Part shown: positions 12,557 to 21,941 of the stretch, one piece after another
Position numbering within the stretch: position 1 is the stretch's first letter
Layout of the letters: every line of letters begins with the position of its first letter
Assembly (NCBI GenBank): GCA_012974475.1
Contig: JAAXQD010000119.1
Location: forward strand, 1-34,410
Source: Desulfobacterales bacterium
GTDB lineage: Bacteria > Desulfobacterota > Desulfobacteria > Desulfobacterales > UBA11574
DNA: 34,410 bases
Direction: 5' to 3'
The notes under the pieces: model-generated
Database searches by the model: none
What the model was told of the DNA's origin: nothing
Seen by the model: the letters and a program-made list of their open reading frames with translations, nothing else
Made by a program: the position numbers and the translations under genes

Positions 12557-13615
12557 GTGAAACTGAACCTTTTCAAAAAGCCGACCCTGCTAAGTCTGTC
12601 AAAAACGTGCGGTTGAGCCGCAAAAATCGACCCGGTCGGGCTCGGAAATTTGTTGGCAGGTCTACCCAAAAACGAAGATCCCAACTTGTTGGTGGGCTAT
12701 GAAACCAGTGATGATGCCGGCATTTATCGATTGACCGACGACCTCGCCGTCATTATGACTGCCGATTATATTACGCCACCGGTAAACGATCCGTATGTAT
12801 TCGGCCAGATTGCGGCCGCCAACGCCATCAGCGATGTTTATGCCATGGGCGGTCGTCCTATCGCCTGCCTTAATCTGGTCAGTTTTCCCGCTAAGAAGCT
12901 GCCTTTTGATGTCCTGCACCAAATCGTCGCCGGCGCTTTAAGCAAGATTACCGAAGCAGGAGCGGTGCTGGCAGGGGGGCATTCCATCGAAGACGAAGAA
13001 CCCAAATTCGGGTTGGCGGTGACCGGCGTCGTACATCCCGACAAGTTCTGGACCAACCGGGGCGCCCGGCCAGGAGATGTGTTGATTCTCACCAAACCCA
13101 TCGGAAGCGGCGTACTGTTTAATGCCAATTTGAAACAATGGGTCTCCAAGAAGGCCATGGATGCCTGTGTGGCAGCCATTTCAACCCTCAACCGAACCGC
13201 TGCTGAGGTCATGGCGGGTTTCGACATACATGCCGCAACCGATGTAACCGGATTCGGACTGTCCGGACACGGCTTTGAAATGGCCAAAGCTTCTGAAGTC
13301 TGTTTGGAAATCGAAGTTTCCCGTTTGCCGATCATGGACGAGGCACTGGCGGTCTATAAAAAAGGGATGAGAACCAGCGTAAATGCTGACAACAGAAAGA
13401 TGGTGGAAAAATATATGCGGTTTGAGGCCGATCTCCCCATCTGGCACCAAGAGATTGTATTTGACCCGCAAACCAGCGGCGGCCTTTTAGTGGCGCTATC
13501 CGAAGCCCAGGGAGAAGACCTCATCAACGCCTTAGGCGCAGCAGGCGTGGCCGCGGCAAAAATCATCGGTCGCATTCGTGAAGTGAAAGCGGCGACGTAT
13601 CTGGTATTTAAGTAA
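12557..13615 (+). CDS. selD: Selenophosphate synthetase SelD, selenocysteine-containing (UGA at codon 20)
   Basis: GTG 12557 after GGAG, in frame with ORF 12650: MKLNLFKKPTLLSLSKTCG-TGA(12614-12616)-AAKIDP; SDDAGIY, ANAISDVYAMGG, GGHS, TDVTGFG, DPQTSGGLL. Confidence 0.95.
12627..12645 (+). promoter_or_regulatory. Bacterial SECIS element of selD
   Basis: TCGA-CCC [GGTC] GGG-(C)-TCGG; the stem starts 10 nt after UGA and a G-leading apical loop starts 17 nt after UGA. Confidence 0.75.
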
Positions 13616-15628: not shown

Positions 15629-16429
15629 TTAAGAACTCTCTTGAAGACTGTTTCGAACTTGAGAGTAAATACCCGGAGCCATAACCAGAAGGCGGTCATT
15701 GATCTTTTGCCCATTCAGATATTCATTGATGAAAAAGTCGCTCCCATCCATCTTGCAGATTTTTCCGCCGGCCGCCTCAAGAATAATGCCGGCGGCTGCA
15801 AGATCCTGATAGGACTCATTGGCGATCACGGCAGCTTCTGCACGACCCATGGCCACATAACATATGTGGGCGCCGGTGCAGCCCAGATCGCGGATTTTTC
15901 CCGGAAATGTTGAACGGTAACGGTGGTGAAATCGTGAATACGTGAAGAGAAGGCTCTCGTCGTTGATATTCTTCATATCTGAAACGCGAATTTCTTCATC
16001 TCCCAGAAAAGCATTTTGGTCGGCCCGTGCATGAAAAAGATCGCCGGTTGCAGGCATGTAAAACACGCCGAAAATCGGCCAGAAATTTTCAATGAGCGCC
16101 AGAGAGATACCCCATATGGGAATGCCCGCCTGAAAGTTGGCCACACCGTCCAATGGATCGAATATCCAGATATAGCGCTTTTCATCATGGGTATAATCCG
16201 TGTTCGTTTGATTGTTTTTAAACACCTGGTGTTCAGGAAAACGATTGTCCAGTTGATCCTGAAAAAATTCCATCAGGTGGGAATCCGCCTCTGTAACAAG
16301 ATCTTCGTCGAATTTAATACGGGAATTCCCTTTGCCATAATACAACAGCGCCTCTTCACCTGAACGGCGGATCACTTCCATTGCGAATTGAGTCAACACT
16401 TCAATCCCATGACGTTTTTTAGCAGTCAT
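15629..16429 (-). CDS. Inositol monophosphatase family protein (divergent active site)
   Basis: DLVTEAD, WIFDPLDG.ANF, YVAMGR, DLAAAGIILEAAGG; GGAGG RBS. Confidence 0.85.
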   Translation of the reverse strand: MTAKKRHGIEVLTQFAMEVIRRSGEEALLYYGKGNSRIKFDEDLVTEADSHLMEFFQDQLDNRFPEHQVFKNNQTNTDYTHDEKRYIWIFDPLDGVANFQAGIPIWGISLALIENFWPIFGVFYMPATGDLFHARADQNAFLGDEEIRVSDMKNINDESLLFTYSRFHHRYRSTFPGKIRDLGCTGAHICYVAMGRAEAAVIANESYQDLAAAGIILEAAGGKICKMDGSDFFINEYLNGQKINDRLLVMAPGIYSQVRNSLQESS

Positions 16430-17216: not shown

Positions 17217-19658
17217 GTGACATCCGCTTCGATTTACATAGAGGTCGCCATTGCCCTTCCGGTACATAACACGTATACATACCGGGTTCCGGAAGGCCTT
17301 TCAGCGCTGGCCACCACAGGAAAAAGGGTCCTTGTTCCGTTTGGTCGGCGCAGGGTAACGGGATATATTTTGGGTTCCTGCAAAGAAATCCATCCGGAAG
17401 AGATAAAAACGGTTCTGGATATCCTTGACGAATCGTCGCTGTTTCCGTCATCCATGATACCTTTCTTTAGATGGATTGCCGATTACTACATGCATCCCAT
17501 CGGAGATGTCATCAAGAGCGCACTGCCGGGCGGACTCAATGTTTGCGACGACCACATTGTGAGTATTACGGCAAAAGGGGAACAAGCCCTTGTCAAGAAT
17601 TCGGTGACACCTTTGGAAAGCGAGATTTTAAATCTGCTGACCACAGCACCCTGCCGCCTAAAAGAACTCCGAAAAAAACTCCACAAGCAAATCCCCAATG
17701 CCCTGATGTATGCCATGGAAAATCGAGGACATATTGAGCACTCATGCAAACTTAAAGGTGGAACAACAAAGCCGAAGGTAGAACGGCATGTGGCGTTGAC
17801 CGGTTCAAATATGCCCGTGGACGGTCTTTCCAAATCAAGAAAAAAAATCCTTGAGATGATCGAAGCGCAGGGTGAAATCTCGGCGAGAAAATTAAAGGCC
17901 GTGGTTCCGTCTGCCCCGAACTTAATCAAACATTTAGAAGCGGACGGTTATATTTCAATTTTTTATAAAAGGGTTTATCGCGATCCCTTTGGTGAAACCA
18001 TCAACTCGGACATCCCGCACAATCTTACCCAGGAACAAACAACGGTGGTCTCCACCGTAATGGCATCTCTGGGTCAAAAATTTTCAACCTACCTTTTAAT
18101 CGGCGTGACCGGCAGCGGCAAGACCGAAGTTTACATGCAACTTGCGGCAAAGGCCATCGACGGCGGTTATTCCGTTTTAGTTCTGGTTCCCGAAATCGCC
18201 CTTATATCACAGATGGAGCGGCGTTTCCGGGCACGATTTGGTGAGCGCGTCGCCGTTCTTCACAGCGCACTTTCTCCGGGAGAACGCTATGATCAGTGGA
18301 CCCGAATTGTACGGGGTGAGGTCGCCATCGCCATTGGCGCCAGATCTGCCGTTTTTGCACCGTTAAAAAATATCGGCATTATCATCGTCGATGAAGAACA
18401 TGACACATCCTACAAACAGGACAGTCGTTTGCGATACAATGCCAGAGATCTTGCCGTCGTAAGGGCAAAGCTTCAAAACGGTGTTGCCCTTCTGGGATCC
18501 GCCACGCCGTCTCTACAGTCCTACTATAATGTTAAAACAAATAAATTTAAGGGGGTTACACTAAAGAAACGTGTTGAAAAACGACCGCTGCCCAAAATAA
18601 CAATGATCGATCTGCGAAAAAATAGAGATGTCAGGGGAATCCAGCGTTTTATTACTTCCGAACTCCACGAGGCAATGAGAACAACCCTTGCGCGTGGTGA
18701 GCAGGTTCTCCTTTTTCTGAACCGGCGAGGCTTCGCCAGCTATCCGGTCTGCTCAGCCTGTGGTGAAGCCATACAATGTAAGAACTGTGACATTTCTCTG
18801 ACACTGCACCAAACGGCCAATGCATATAAATGTCATTACTGTGGTTTTACACGGGCGGCGGTATCGAACTGCAAGACCTGCGGGTCCTCAAAGATAAGGC
18901 TGCTGGGACTCGGCACTGAAAAGATCGAATCTACGGTGAAGACCCTTTTTCCGGATGCCACCGTGGCCAGGATGGATCGTGATACCACCCGGAGAAAAGG
19001 ATCGATTATCAAGATACTGAAAGGCCTGAGAAACCAAACCATCGATGTTCTGGTGGGAACTCAGATGGTGGCCAAAGGACATGACTATCCGAATATTACC
19101 CTGGTGGGTATTATCTGTGCAGATCTCTCTCTCAACTTTCCGGACTTTCGAGCCGCAGAACGAACCTTTCAGCTTCTGGCCCAGGTCGCCGGACGTGCCG
19201 GACGGGGGTCTGTGCCCGGCAATGTAATCCTTCAAACCTACAACCCAGATCACTTCAGCATCTTATCTGCGACAGCTCAGGACTTTCAGGCCTTTTACAA
19301 CGATGAGATAGGGTTCCGCGAAAATCTGAATTATCCCCCATTTTCAAGAATGGTCCAACTTAAAATATCCGGGAAAAACAAGGAAAAAACCCGGGACCAT
19401 GCCCAGGCGTTGGGAGATCTCTGCTTTGATTTAAAAAGAAACGATCGATCCTTTTTGAGATCTTTGGAGATTTTAGGCCCCATTGAAGCGCCGATCCCAA
19501 AGATTGCCAAACACTACCGTTGGCAAATATTATTAAAAGGCCGAAGCGTTAAACCGCTCCGCGAGTTTCTTCACAAGGTGTGGTTTGAGAACAGGGCTGC
19601 CATCCAAAACCGGGATGTCAAGGTTGTTCTGGACGTGGACCCGTTTTTTATGACTTAA
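17217..19658 (+). CDS. priA: Primosomal protein N' (replication restart helicase)
   Basis: GVTGSGKT, LVPEIAL, DEEH, SATPS, LNRRG, four CxxC zinc motifs, QVAGRAGR, LDVDP. Confidence 0.97.
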   Translation: MTSASIYIEVAIALPVHNTYTYRVPEGLSALATTGKRVLVPFGRRRVTGYILGSCKEIHPEEIKTVLDILDESSLFPSSMIPFFRWIADYYMHPIGDVIKSALPGGLNVCDDHIVSITAKGEQALVKNSVTPLESEILNLLTTAPCRLKELRKKLHKQIPNALMYAMENRGHIEHSCKLKGGTTKPKVERHVALTGSNMPVDGLSKSRKKILEMIEAQGEISARKLKAVVPSAPNLIKHLEADGYISIFYKRVYRDPFGETINSDIPHNLTQEQTTVVSTVMASLGQKFSTYLLIGVTGSGKTEVYMQLAAKAIDGGYSVLVLVPEIALISQMERRFRARFGERVAVLHSALSPGERYDQWTRIVRGEVAIAIGARSAVFAPLKNIGIIIVDEEHDTSYKQDSRLRYNARDLAVVRAKLQNGVALLGSATPSLQSYYNVKTNKFKGVTLKKRVEKRPLPKITMIDLRKNRDVRGIQRFITSELHEAMRTTLARGEQVLLFLNRRGFASYPVCSACGEAIQCKNCDISLTLHQTANAYKCHYCGFTRAAVSNCKTCGSSKIRLLGLGTEKIESTVKTLFPDATVARMDRDTTRRKGSIIKILKGLRNQTIDVLVGTQMVAKGHDYPNITLVGIICADLSLNFPDFRAAERTFQLLAQVAGRAGRGSVPGNVILQTYNPDHFSILSATAQDFQAFYNDEIGFRENLNYPPFSRMVQLKISGKNKEKTRDHAQALGDLCFDLKRNDRSFLRSLEILGPIEAPIPKIAKHYRWQILLKGRSVKPLREFLHKVWFENRAAIQNRDVKVVLDVDPFFMT

Positions 19659-19743
19659 ATCCTGTATTCAGATACGGGTTGCCTGGCGTTTGCCGTGTCG
19701 ATCCTTGCACAGGCAAAACAAACGGAACAGCTTAAAACAAAAA

Positions 19744-19775
19744 GATGCAACTTGACATTACAAAGGATGCAACTT
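19744..19775 (+). promoter_or_regulatory. Direct-repeat operator candidate overlapping a -35 box
   Basis: GATGCAACTT at 19744-19753 and 19766-19775 (22-bp period); TTGACA at 19752-19757. Confidence 0.45.
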
Positions 19776-19875
19776 AAGTAGTCTGTTCATGCCCTGTCGA
19801 GCAACCGGATGATGGGCCCCAAGATCCGATTTCTCAAACCCAATTACCACATATTATATATAGGAATTTTTCAAC

Positions 19876-20607
19876 ATGAAATTTAAAATCTGTGCTGCTT
19901 TCTTTCTACTGTTCTGCTTGGTTTTTTCCCAAACCAGTGCTTTTGGCGCCTCGAAACAAACGCCTCAATCACCATCCGCCGTTGTACCGGAAAGCCGTTA
20001 CACCTTTGCTCAAGTTGCAGACGGCACTGAAGTAACCCATGGTTTTGTTATACAAAACAAAGGAACCGCTCTGCTGAAGATCGAGAGCGTCAAAACCGGG
20101 TGAGGGTGCACCGCTGTCTCATACCCGAGACAGATCCCTGCCGGCGGCGAGGGAAAGGTTGTCATCAAAGTCGATACATCGGGCTACGGTGGAAGAACGA
20201 TGACCAAAACCATAACGGTCAAAACCAATGCACCCGACCAACCCGTACTTCATCTGATCGTTTCTGGTAATGTTGAAAACTTTGTTACCATCGTCCCGAA
20301 GCGGGCCACTCTCCGCGGTTTTCCCGGCGATAAAATAATATCAACCGTAAAGATCATACCTGAAAAAAAGTATCCGTTCAGAATTTCCGACGTCACGGCA
20401 ATTAATGGCAAATACATCCGTTATACACTGGAAAAAAATAAATCTTCAGAAAATATGGAATATGTTCTGACGGTTGAAAACCTGAAAAATGATAAGGGCC
20501 GCTATTTTGATACCATCAAATTAACAACGGACAGCAAAATACGGCCGGAGATCAAAATCTATGTTTACGGTTACATCTCAGACCGGCCGACAAACCCCAA
20601 AAAATAA
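19876..20607 (+). CDS. Exported DUF1573-type (Ig-like) protein with in-frame UGA; putative selenoprotein (U-G-C motif), 243 aa
   Basis: ORFs 19876..20103 and 20200..20607 share a frame. The 32 intervening codons are open (GCTAVSYPRQIPAGGEGKVVIKVDTSGYGGRT) and complete the DUF1573 pattern F.I.N.G...L.I..V...CGCT......I.PG. TGA 20101-20103 occupies the first Cys position. Confidence 0.8.
20114..20133 (+). promoter_or_regulatory. SECIS-like hairpin after the DUF1573 UGA (non-canonical loop)
   Basis: CTGTCTC [ATACCC] GAGACAG, a perfect 7-bp stem starting 10 nt after UGA, with the loop 17 nt after UGA. Confidence 0.55.
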
Positions 20608-20608
20608 G

Positions 20609-21253
20609 ATGAAAAATATCAAAGTTGTTGCTTTCGATTGTGACGGCGTTATGTTCGACACAACCAAGGCAAACATTGCTTACTATAATCAGATATTGGA
20701 CCATCTCGGTCAGCCGCCATTGACCCCCGATCAATTTGCTTACTGTCACAGCCATACCGTAGACCAATCCATTGAATTCCTCTGTAATGACCCGGAAAAT
20801 ATCCAGGCGGCCCAGAGTTATCGGAAAAATATGAGCTATCTCCCGTTTTTAAAATATATGGTCATAGAACCCCATTTAAAACAGCTACTTAAAATGCTCA
20901 GGCCGACATATAAAACCGCAGTTGCAACCAACCGATCGGACACCATGGACCGGGTTCTCAAAGAACACGGCCTGGAAGGGTATTTTGACCTTGTGGTCAG
21001 TTCCATGGACGTGGAGCGTCCCAAACCTCACCCAGACCCGCTGATCAAGATTCTGGACCATTTTGGAATAGAACCGAACCATGCGTTATATGTAGGGGAT
21101 TCGAACCTCGACGAAATTGCGGCAAAAGCCGCGGGGATGCCGTTTGTGGCGTATCAAAACAGATCCCTTTCCGCTGAGTTTCATATACACAGCTTGAAAG
21201 AAATCACAAAGATCCTTGATTTAGAAATAGGGTGGCAAGAAGACGTCACATAA
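20609..21253 (+). CDS. HAD-family hydrolase (phosphoglycolate phosphatase-like)
   Basis: FDCDGV, VATNR, KPHP, YVGDS..D; ATG 1 nt after the upstream stop. Confidence 0.9.
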   Translation: MKNIKVVAFDCDGVMFDTTKANIAYYNQILDHLGQPPLTPDQFAYCHSHTVDQSIEFLCNDPENIQAAQSYRKNMSYLPFLKYMVIEPHLKQLLKMLRPTYKTAVATNRSDTMDRVLKEHGLEGYFDLVVSSMDVERPKPHPDPLIKILDHFGIEPNHALYVGDSNLDEIAAKAAGMPFVAYQNRSLSAEFHIHSLKEITKILDLEIGWQEDVT

Positions 21254-21313
21254 AAAACATTGACTTCCATGGATTGAAGAAAATCTGCGCTGTAAATTTA
21301 TTATATGGGTCGG

Positions 21314-21538
21314 TTATTGGTTGCCCAACCCATTGTTATCACCGCAGTCCGGGCATTCCCAGGTTATTCCGTTGCAAGACATCCCCCAGAAATTTTCCAA
21401 CATGCATTCCTGACAAATAGCAAAGCCGCACCGGCATCTCCAGCAGAAAAGTGGTTTCTCCCTGCAGCAATGGCAGCCGCTTTGTCTGCCAATGCGGCGT
21501 CTTTCTCTATAAGGCGTTCTTTTTACAGAGTTTTTCAT
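21314..21538 (-). CDS. Small Cys-rich protein, C4C4 RING-like zinc finger
   Basis: 11 Cys in 74 aa; spacing C-X2-C-X9-C-X-C-X4-C-X2-C-X16-C-X2-C; start overlaps the upstream gene end. Confidence 0.7.
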   Translation of the reverse strand: MKNSVKRTPYRERRRIGRQSGCHCCREKPLFCWRCRCGFAICQECMLENFWGMSCNGITWECPDCGDNNGLGNQ

Positions 21539-21941
21539 GTTCGATCTTTATACATTTGTTCGTTACCACATCAACGCCTGCTTCTGTTAACAGTGCTGCA
21601 GCTTCCGGGTTTTCGATGTTCAGCTGCATCCAGAAGACTTTCGGCGACAGGCGGGCGGCTTCAAGGGCATGGGGCACAATCTGTGCGGAATTTCTGAATA
21701 CGTCCACAATATCCACTTTTTCCTGGATATCATCGAGTGTGGCATGGGCTTTTTCTCCCAGAATTTCTTTTTGCCCGGGCCGGACCGGAATTATTCTGTA
21801 TCCTTGATTTTTGAGATATTTTGCGACCTTATTGGAGTCCCTTTCGGGTTTGGGGCTTAAACCCACGATGGCAATGGTCTTTGCATTTTCGAGTGTTCTT
21901 TTGATTTCATCATCTTCGGTAATTATCTTGCCGGGTTTCAT
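21507..21941 (-). CDS. CoA-binding protein (YccU-like)
   Basis: IAIVGLSPKPERDS, VDIVDVFR, WMQL, NKCIKIEH. Confidence 0.92.
   Translation of the reverse strand: MKPGKIITEDDEIKRTLENAKTIAIVGLSPKPERDSNKVAKYLKNQGYRIIPVRPGQKEILGEKAHATLDDIQEKVDIVDVFRNSAQIVPHALEAARLSPKVFWMQLNIENPEAAALLTEAGVDVVTNKCIKIEHEKLCKKNAL

Follow-up and report, generated by a model that had tools for sequence, protein, structure and literature searches.

The stretch of DNA analysed (the window) is 34,410 nucleotides (nt) of contig JAAXQD010000119.1 from a Desulfobacterales bacterium (assembly GCA_012974475.1, positions 1 to 34,410 of the forward strand), and between 19876 and 20607 it contains a gene whose coding frame is interrupted by a single TGA codon. 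Very probably the UGA is decoded as selenocysteine (Sec, U) and the gene is a genuine Sec-decoded member of the known OS_HP2/DUF1573 family, the confidence so expressed excluding the chemistry that the residue may perform. That the selenoprotein gene is genuine is supported by the equivalence of the UGA to a cysteine codon, by purifying selection beyond it, by hairpins specific to the Sec forms and by the presence of selA, selB and selD. It adds no new family: catalogues have listed the selenoprotein family to which it belongs, as an ordinary member, since 2007, and NCBI curates that family.

One frame of 243 codons spans the gene on the forward strand, and the TGA at 20101-20103 is the only one in frame. 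With translation table 11 it appears as two separate calls, open reading frames (ORFs) 19876..20103 (75 amino acids) and 20200..20607 (135 amino acids), which have their frame in common and between which, from the TGA to the ATG of the second, lie 32 open codons (20104-20199). A preliminary description, made from the DNA letters, had proposed a single frame broken in just this manner and, from its DUF1573 domain with a UGA at the conserved CGC, a selenoprotein; the ORF coordinates and the read-through translation agree with the former proposal and the family models with the latter. When the TGA is read as U the product has 243 residues, with the local sequence ...LKIESVKTG-U-GCTAVSYPRQIPAGGEG..., the longer reading around codon 76 being ...LKIESVKTG-U-GC-TAVSYPRQIPAGGEG... 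(motif KTG-U-GC-TAV). An AGGA is positioned about 11 nt 5′ of the ATG. With 144.4 bits (curated cut-off 100) the NCBIfam model NF041425, ‘OS_HP2 family (seleno)protein’, aligns to residues 37-134 over all its 98 positions, and Pfam DUF1573 (PF07610) matches residues 39-133 with 70.5 bits (cut-off 26.1). Since both models cross the TGA, a single domain is divided between the two ORFs of table 11. The U-G-C motif of the family is present, its Sec occupying the place of the first Cys in C-G-C, and at the motif Cys forms read [ST/G]-C-GC-T versus KTG-U-GC-TAV here. A HYDIN/VesB-like immunoglobulin (Ig) model (PF22544) also matches the selenoprotein, with 35.2 bits in Pfam.

OS_HP2 was among the six new selenoprotein families listed in Table 2 of the study by Zhang and Gladyshev of the Olavius algarvensis symbiont metagenome in 2007, where it was represented by two TGA-containing genes, one from the delta1 and one from the delta4 symbiont (PMC1976440; this and the later sources are drawn on here as excerpts). 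Its identity with the present family follows from the table entry ‘OS_HP2, pfam07610, UxC’ in the 2008 ocean-sampling study by the same authors (PMC2398784), from the name of the NCBIfam model, and from the tables of reviews of 2022 (PMC9312934) and 2026 (PMC13188914), in which the entry is ‘DUF1573 domain-containing protein, UGC’. It is this comparison with published selenoprotein lists, advised in the preliminary description, that together with the curated model NF041425 places the gene in a catalogued family.

Nothing essential differs between the gene and that family. The domain scores above the cut-off, the position of U-G-C is the same, Sec and Cys forms alternate, the hosts are deltaproteobacterial (Desulfobacterota) and of marine sediment, and a stem-loop follows the UGA; the curated model covers the 98-residue domain 1 only. 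Described here, and not in the excerpts of the family literature, are a signal peptide, a second beta-sandwich, a layout of two hairpins and a neighbouring HAD gene. Cys DUF1573 proteins (C-G-C, e.g. those of Bacteroidota) have the Pfam domain and the position of C-G-C in common with the gene, but in them Cys replaces Sec, the downstream hairpins are absent, and many are longer or multi-domain. Among the Desulfobacterota that live in marine sediments the family is widely distributed, and the gene is another case of a selenoprotein split or mistranslated by standard gene callers, although a curated model for it exists.

The TGA codon among relatives

In 41 genomes from the organism's own genus, family and order, searched with profile NF041425, a match was found in 38 and was above the cut-off in 37. 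The above-cut-off matches number 42, of which 36 have the in-frame TGA and 6 do not. Thirty related loci that were fetched encode full-length collinear protein of 40-93% identity, and at the codon corresponding to U76 28 of them have TGA and two have TGC. Of 301 genomes sampled evenly across the phylum, a family match at E <= 0.001 occurs in 122 and one above the curated cut-off in 21; among the matches listed, TGA is present in 19 of the 23 that are above cut-off. The source names of database relatives are Desulfobacterales or Desulfobacteraceae. The TGA is neither peculiar to this assembly nor, in the 30 loci fetched, replaced by TAA or TAG, patterns which the preliminary description had named as ones that would tell against it, along with relaxed selection after the TGA, for which see below.

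The distribution of the two forms was also compared with that of selA, which was detected in 279 of the 301 phylum genomes. Five selA-less genomes with a good family match (G047, G182, G187, G211 and G290, 91-100% complete, from 20 selA-less genomes listed) have stop-free forms only. Tabulation of the codon, again as advised in the preliminary description, thus yields TGA in relatives that have the machinery and Cys in genomes where selA was not detected.

No part of the gene is more conserved than the 32 codons that separate the TGA from the following ATG. In comparisons with 10 relatives, the ratio of nonsynonymous to synonymous substitution rates (dN/dS, by the method of Nei and Gojobori) is 0.17-0.46 upstream of the TGA (codons 26-75); downstream it is 0.20-0.61 over codons 77-134 and 0.11-0.30 over codons 135-243. 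Relaxed selection after the TGA is not what was found, the ratio being below 1 in all ten, and with the codons past the TGA at least as constrained as those before it, a pseudogene or a true stop is contradicted.

One related locus, L052, has a Sec form and a Cys form in tandem, some 670 nt apart (G029:C37:14970-15254 and 15924-16208).

Hairpins past the UGA and the means of decoding it

Two hairpins in succession, together the putative Sec insertion sequence (SECIS), are found 3′ of the UGA (Table 1). Hairpin 1 begins 10 nt past the UGA (+13 from the U of UGA) and, folded alone, has an energy of -10.7 kcal/mol with z = -5.0; for hairpin 2, which overlies the codons for I-P-A/P-G-G-E-G, folding alone gives z = -2.1. 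Pairing and covariation were assessed in 28 Sec-form sequences, 26 of them distinct. In the distinct forms 95.1% of cells are paired over both hairpins, as against 34-56% when the partners are slid, and four pairs show compensatory double changes, with a covariation score that was reached by 0 of 500 shuffles. Compensatory changes affect three of the seven pairs of hairpin 1 and one pair of hairpin 2, for which 96.2% of cells are paired, and RNAalifold recovers both helices independently. An illustrative instance is locus L021, where a change of Arg AGA to Lys AAA is accompanied by a synonymous change of Val GUC to GUU, and the base pair is kept.

The contrast with Cys forms is marked, its limits being the common ancestry of the relatives and the small number of Cys forms. 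In a comparison of 35 Sec with 5 Cys forms, which leaves out the stop-free form L050 and also L056, an average of 6.4 of the 7 pairs of hairpin 1 are formed versus 2.0, and of the 5 core pairs of hairpin 2 the values are 4.66 versus 2.0. When folded, the 54 nt that follow codon 76 have a mean energy of -20.9 kcal/mol in the Sec forms and -8.4 in the Cys forms. Among 20 more distant loci from the phylum the 17 Sec forms again have two hairpins, with hairpin 1 differing both in sequence and in the residues that it encodes, and the averaged energies are about -20.5 kcal/mol for these 17 versus about -12.9 for 3 Cys forms (this comparison includes L056 and leaves out the stop-free L050 and L067, and L068, a false match to the motif pattern on the + strand, was dropped for internal stops). 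The selenoprotein criterion applied in 2007 was a stable stem-loop 3′ of the UGA resembling a bacterial SECIS (PMC1976440), and what the present locus offers in that respect is two hairpins with covariation and a contrast between Sec and Cys forms. The legend to Figure 5 of the same study has no OS_HP2 SECIS among those listed. Rfam gave nothing in the window at gathering score, and in 20060-20220 only chance matches with E of at least 7, so that none of the curated families of bacterial SECIS applies.

In having a hairpin about 10 nt past the UGA and within coding sequence, the gene resembles both the E. coli fdhF-type SECIS and the element of the window's own selD, whose hairpin likewise begins 10 nt past its UGA (+13 from the U) and has a GGUC loop and a bulge. 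Unlike the selD element, hairpin 1 is without a GU or GGUC loop, and directly after it comes another conserved hairpin, whose loop is G-rich. The layout is in this sense bipartite: hairpin 1 has the canonical spacing, about 10 nt, and lacks the loop G, while the G-rich loop is provided by its successor. SelB in complex with Sec-tRNA(Sec) would bind this bipartite stem-loop region, and Sec would be inserted at codon 76.

The genes needed are largely at hand in the assembly (2.74 Mb in 265 contigs, 89% complete). All of selA (611.9 bits), selB (390.9 bits) and selD (368.4 bits) score above their cut-offs, and the Sec-containing selD that the preliminary description had pointed to at a distance of 6 kb, and from which it argued for a genome that decodes UGA as Sec, is indeed there, its end some 6.3 kb upstream of the DUF1573 gene. 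In one of the congeners the tRNA-Sec locus (L081:1501-1594) has a left flank whose counterpart stops at the end of contig C211 and a right flank whose counterpart starts at base 1 of C88. With the flanks ending exactly at contig boundaries, the tRNA-Sec locus falls in an assembly gap.

Several points nevertheless weigh against Sec decoding of the gene. Neither Rfam nor ARAGORN found tRNA-Sec in the assembly: none of the 33 tRNAs listed by ARAGORN is tRNA-Sec, and the best Rfam match to its model, at 40.5 bits (threshold 47), is a tRNA-Leu, other matches being tRNA-Ser and tRNA-Arg. The hairpin 1 loops (AUACCC, UUAUAC, GUACCC, CUUUCC and others) are without a conserved G or GU, whereas guanosines that are conserved in SECIS apical loops are noted in a 2007 figure legend (PMC1976440). 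A conserved apical-loop G or GU in a hairpin about 11 nt past the UGA, as in the canonical fdhF-like SECIS, is missing from hairpin 1. Only in hairpin 2 is there a G-rich loop, at a distance of some 40 nt from the UGA. The two hairpins cover conserved codons, so that their conservation is in part driven by the protein, and the whole 60-71 nt after the UGA fold not significantly better than shuffles (z = -0.9 and, for 60 nt, -1.3), which leaves the hairpins taken singly and the comparison of relatives as the evidence that counts. One related TGA-containing copy, L047 (G025:C13), contains a TAG and a break in the frame besides; the copy may be decaying, or the assembly may be in error. Two phylum genomes of one genus, G126 (62% complete) and G160 (61%), have the TGA form without a selA match, but both have selB. 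The same is true of selB in G154, where it is above cut-off as in G126 and G160 and where a stop-free match of 80 bits coexists with a weak TGA-containing match of 46 bits, so that a TGA form in a genome without the Sec trait, a further pattern named beforehand as adverse, was not seen in the phylum sample. Finally, the excerpted literature on the family yielded no experimental demonstration of Sec incorporation for any OS_HP2/DUF1573 member.

As an observation apart, the genus of G126 and G160 is represented also by G048 and G089, and in these four genomes (61-79% complete) there is no selA match at E <= 1e-60, while three have selB and two have the TGA form. Either the bins are incomplete or selA is divergent.

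Against these points stand the difficulties of the alternatives. Were the TGA a true stop, with the locus a pseudogene or two small genes of 75 and 135 amino acids, the two ORFs of table 11, the many C-terminal fragments of about 135-180 amino acids in public protein sets (one of 135 amino acids, P0008, is identical to 20200..20607) and the broken look of L047 would be accounted for, but it would be hard to see why a single 98-position domain model crosses the TGA, why the 32 codons past it are open and the best conserved of the gene, why 28 of 30 loci, and others across the phylum, keep TGA at the same codon, why downstream dN/dS is below 1 in ten comparisons of ten, or why stop-free forms have Cys at the aligned codon; the idea is barely credible. 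Very improbable too, if not quite to that degree, is read-through in which the UGA stands for Cys, through a tRNA resembling tRNA-Sec, or, in a reassigned code, for Trp or Gly. Some anaerobes recode UGA to Cys, tRNA-Sec is missing from the assembly, and several database entries, full-length ones included (P0002-P0006 and P0010), show W at position 76. However, the W entries fit automatic translation of TGA as W in short contigs, and no stop-free homologue examined has a TGG-encoded Trp at codon 76. A general reassignment of TGA is contradicted by its closing 350 of the 1003 ATG-initiated ORFs of at least 300 amino acids in the assembly, and by its being the own stop codon of the DUF1573 gene in four relatives. 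Beyond selA, selB and selD, standard tRNA-Sec, at 74-75 bits, is present in five out of six congeneric genomes. The W76 entries and the 135-amino-acid fragments are annotation artefacts, which could mislead homology searches.

Fold of the protein and its possible chemistry

The preliminary description had also envisaged an exported protein, with a fold other than that of thioredoxin and a second Ig-like domain, and in each respect it has fared well. The N-terminus consists of MKFK, a hydrophobic core and a predicted cleavage site between A22-F23-G24 and A25, and hydrophobic N-termini are conserved in the alignment of homologues. In an AlphaFold2 model from an alignment of 34 sequences (mean predicted local distance difference test, pLDDT, 90.0; predicted template-modelling score 0.74) residues 4-18 form a helix at low pLDDT within an N-terminus of about 30 residues that is low-confidence throughout. 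Domain 1 is modelled as a seven-stranded sandwich (41-134) with strands above pLDDT 90, and the strands of domain 2 (137-234) have pLDDT 88-97; the latter domain, which matches no Pfam family, is conserved alongside domain 1 in all full-length homologues. U76 is placed in the loop between strands 67-73 and 78-82, with C78 starting the next strand. N61, G63, G77, G90, G106 and K111 are invariant in the alignment, and H55, C78 and T79 nearly so.

An all-beta model of two Ig-like sandwiches, and a motif that is UxC and not UxxC, are not those of a thioredoxin fold. Foldseek against the PDB returned tandem Ig-like chains of ASH/HYDIN type, the best bacterial match being 2qsv of Porphyromonas gingivalis (function unknown), a two-domain fold match over 220 residues (E 1.1e-8, template-modelling score 0.37-0.40) that is possibly a Cys DUF1573 relative; a sequence search of the PDB gave nothing significant, the best hit (E 0.063) being an unrelated Fn3/Ig receptor. 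With the Ig domains of ASH, HYDIN, CFA65 and VesB (PF22544) the fold class is in common and the top Foldseek matches are ciliary central-apparatus chains, but the likeness is one of fold only, at 8-16% identity, to proteins that are structural, eukaryotic and without a Sec/Cys motif.

The course of events that these features suggest would be export of the 243-residue precursor via the Sec pathway by means of its N-terminal signal peptide, giving a mature protein of two tandem Ig-like beta-sandwiches in which U76-G77-C78 is positioned at the loop into strand 4 of domain 1, and in which U76 and C78 may be a reactive pair in the periplasm. That so costly a residue as Sec is used at a C-x-C site speaks for catalysis or tight binding, and not for a structural disulfide. 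The likeliest candidate, whose probability can be put somewhat short of even, is a reversible U76-C78 selenenylsulfide that would work outside the cytoplasm, on a non-thioredoxin scaffold, as a site of thiol/selenol-disulfide chemistry or chalcogen transfer. CXC redox motifs include the C-G-C electron-shuttle tail of sulfhydryl oxidases and the CGC peptides that serve as disulfide-isomerase mimics; in these as here two chalcogen residues are one Gly apart, but the fold differs and the likeness is by analogy only.

With the Sec gene equally real, U76-x-C78, possibly with H55, could instead be a soft-metal or metalloid site (for Cu(I), Hg, Cd, Zn, As or Se/S species) and the protein a periplasmic binding or chaperone protein, a possibility to be entertained with some doubt; what probability these two leave goes to chemistry of some other kind. 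CXC motifs in other proteins bind Cu(I) or Zn, and the near-invariance of H55 and the invariance of N61 and G63, beside U/C76-G77-C78, are in keeping with such a site, as is the label ‘cupredoxin-like copper-binding protein’ (an automatic name) on one distant tandem-DUF1573 protein. Metal-handling families (MerT-like, YHS, CobW-like and cation-transporting ATPase) are placed nearby in the excerpted selenoprotein tables (PMC2398784, PMC9312934, PMC13188914). However, no metal-handling genes adjoin, the neighbours being priA, the HAD hydrolase and polA, of which only HAD recurs in the 20 wider loci. In the excerpts of the literature on the family neither a function for OS_HP2/DUF1573 nor a measured activity for any DUF1573 protein was found. 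There is a more far-reaching proposition, in either or both of two parts: that the recoding signal is a bipartite SECIS, and that U-G-C with H55 on an exported Ig-like scaffold is a centre of a new kind outside the cytoplasm, of selenenylsulfide or soft-metal type, whose gene shares a transcript with that of a HAD phosphatase throughout the order. That either is a real variant mechanism is unlikely. OS_HP2/DUF1573 is in any case one of few exported selenoproteins without a thioredoxin fold, and biochemical study of it is still worthwhile.

Table 1. Positions in the window of the selenoprotein gene, its parts and nearby genes
Feature	Position	Strand	Basis or remark
DUF1573/OS_HP2 selenoprotein gene, complete; Sec = codon 76, stop TAA 20605-20607	19876..20607	+	frame, family models, 30 collinear loci, selection
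In-frame TGA (Sec 76), followed by GGG (Gly77) and TGC (Cys78, 20107-20109)	20101..20103	+	aligned codon in relatives, metagenome runs
Sec-type signal peptide (predicted), residues 1-24, likely cleavage after AFG and before A	19876..19947	+	sequence reading
Domain 1, DUF1573/OS_HP2 Ig-like beta-sandwich, residues 37-134	19984..20277	+	family models, conserved columns, AlphaFold2
Domain 2, second beta-sandwich, residues ~137-234	20284..20577	+	AlphaFold2, collinear conservation, dN/dS
Hairpin 1 of putative SECIS: 7-base-pair stem CUGUCUC/GAGACAG, loop AUACCC	20114..20133	+	folding, covariation, Sec versus Cys contrast
Hairpin 2 of putative SECIS: UCCCU/AGGGA core, inner C-G stem, G-rich loop	20135..20154	+	folding, covariation, Sec versus Cys contrast
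selD (selenophosphate synthetase), own in-frame TGA 12614-12616	about 12557..13615	+	368.4 bits, one TGA, context TCG-U-AAK
priA	17217-19658		upstream neighbour
HAD-IA family hydrolase gene (HAD_2)	20609..21253	+	1 nt after selenoprotein stop; no equivalog model reached
130-amino-acid ORF between HAD gene and polA	21305-21697		no Pfam or NCBIfam family

Independent samples and gene neighbours

A 1.7-kb stretch of the locus was found in metagenome runs of 11 studies, mostly of marine sediment. In DNA run X4 there are no differences over 19600-20245 and the TGA is unchanged, and in DNA run X14 there are 7 differences over 1701 nt, none of them at 20101-20103. Short metagenome contigs of other organisms match only about 20089-20157 (69 nt, at least 90% identity), and as this segment, which comprises the U-G-C codons and both hairpins, alone matches foreign contigs, no other stretch of the locus is so well conserved in its nucleotides. 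Three RNA-library runs contain only 5-7% of the sampled words; run X18 covers only part of the HAD gene, and in run X20 a contig from one relative, corresponding to 19859-21297 with 107 differences, spans the DUF1573 and HAD genes, though contigs from RNA libraries are no proof of transcription.

The gene order is priA, the DUF1573 gene, the HAD-IA hydrolase gene, the 130-amino-acid ORF and polA. In a scan of 19500-21400 for promoters and terminators the counts were within the range of shuffles. The HAD gene adjoins in 28 of 30 order-level loci, one Cys-form locus included, and priA precedes in 20 of the 30. The HAD gene is probably co-transcribed with the selenoprotein gene, and the conserved order suggests a stable operon, in which an exported selenoprotein would be paired with a phosphatase of the cytoplasm. 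In the wider set of loci the HAD gene is adjacent in 5 of 20, once outside the order, and no other neighbour recurs; gene context was accordingly rejected as a clue to function. HAD adjacency was seen in one genome of another family, G079.

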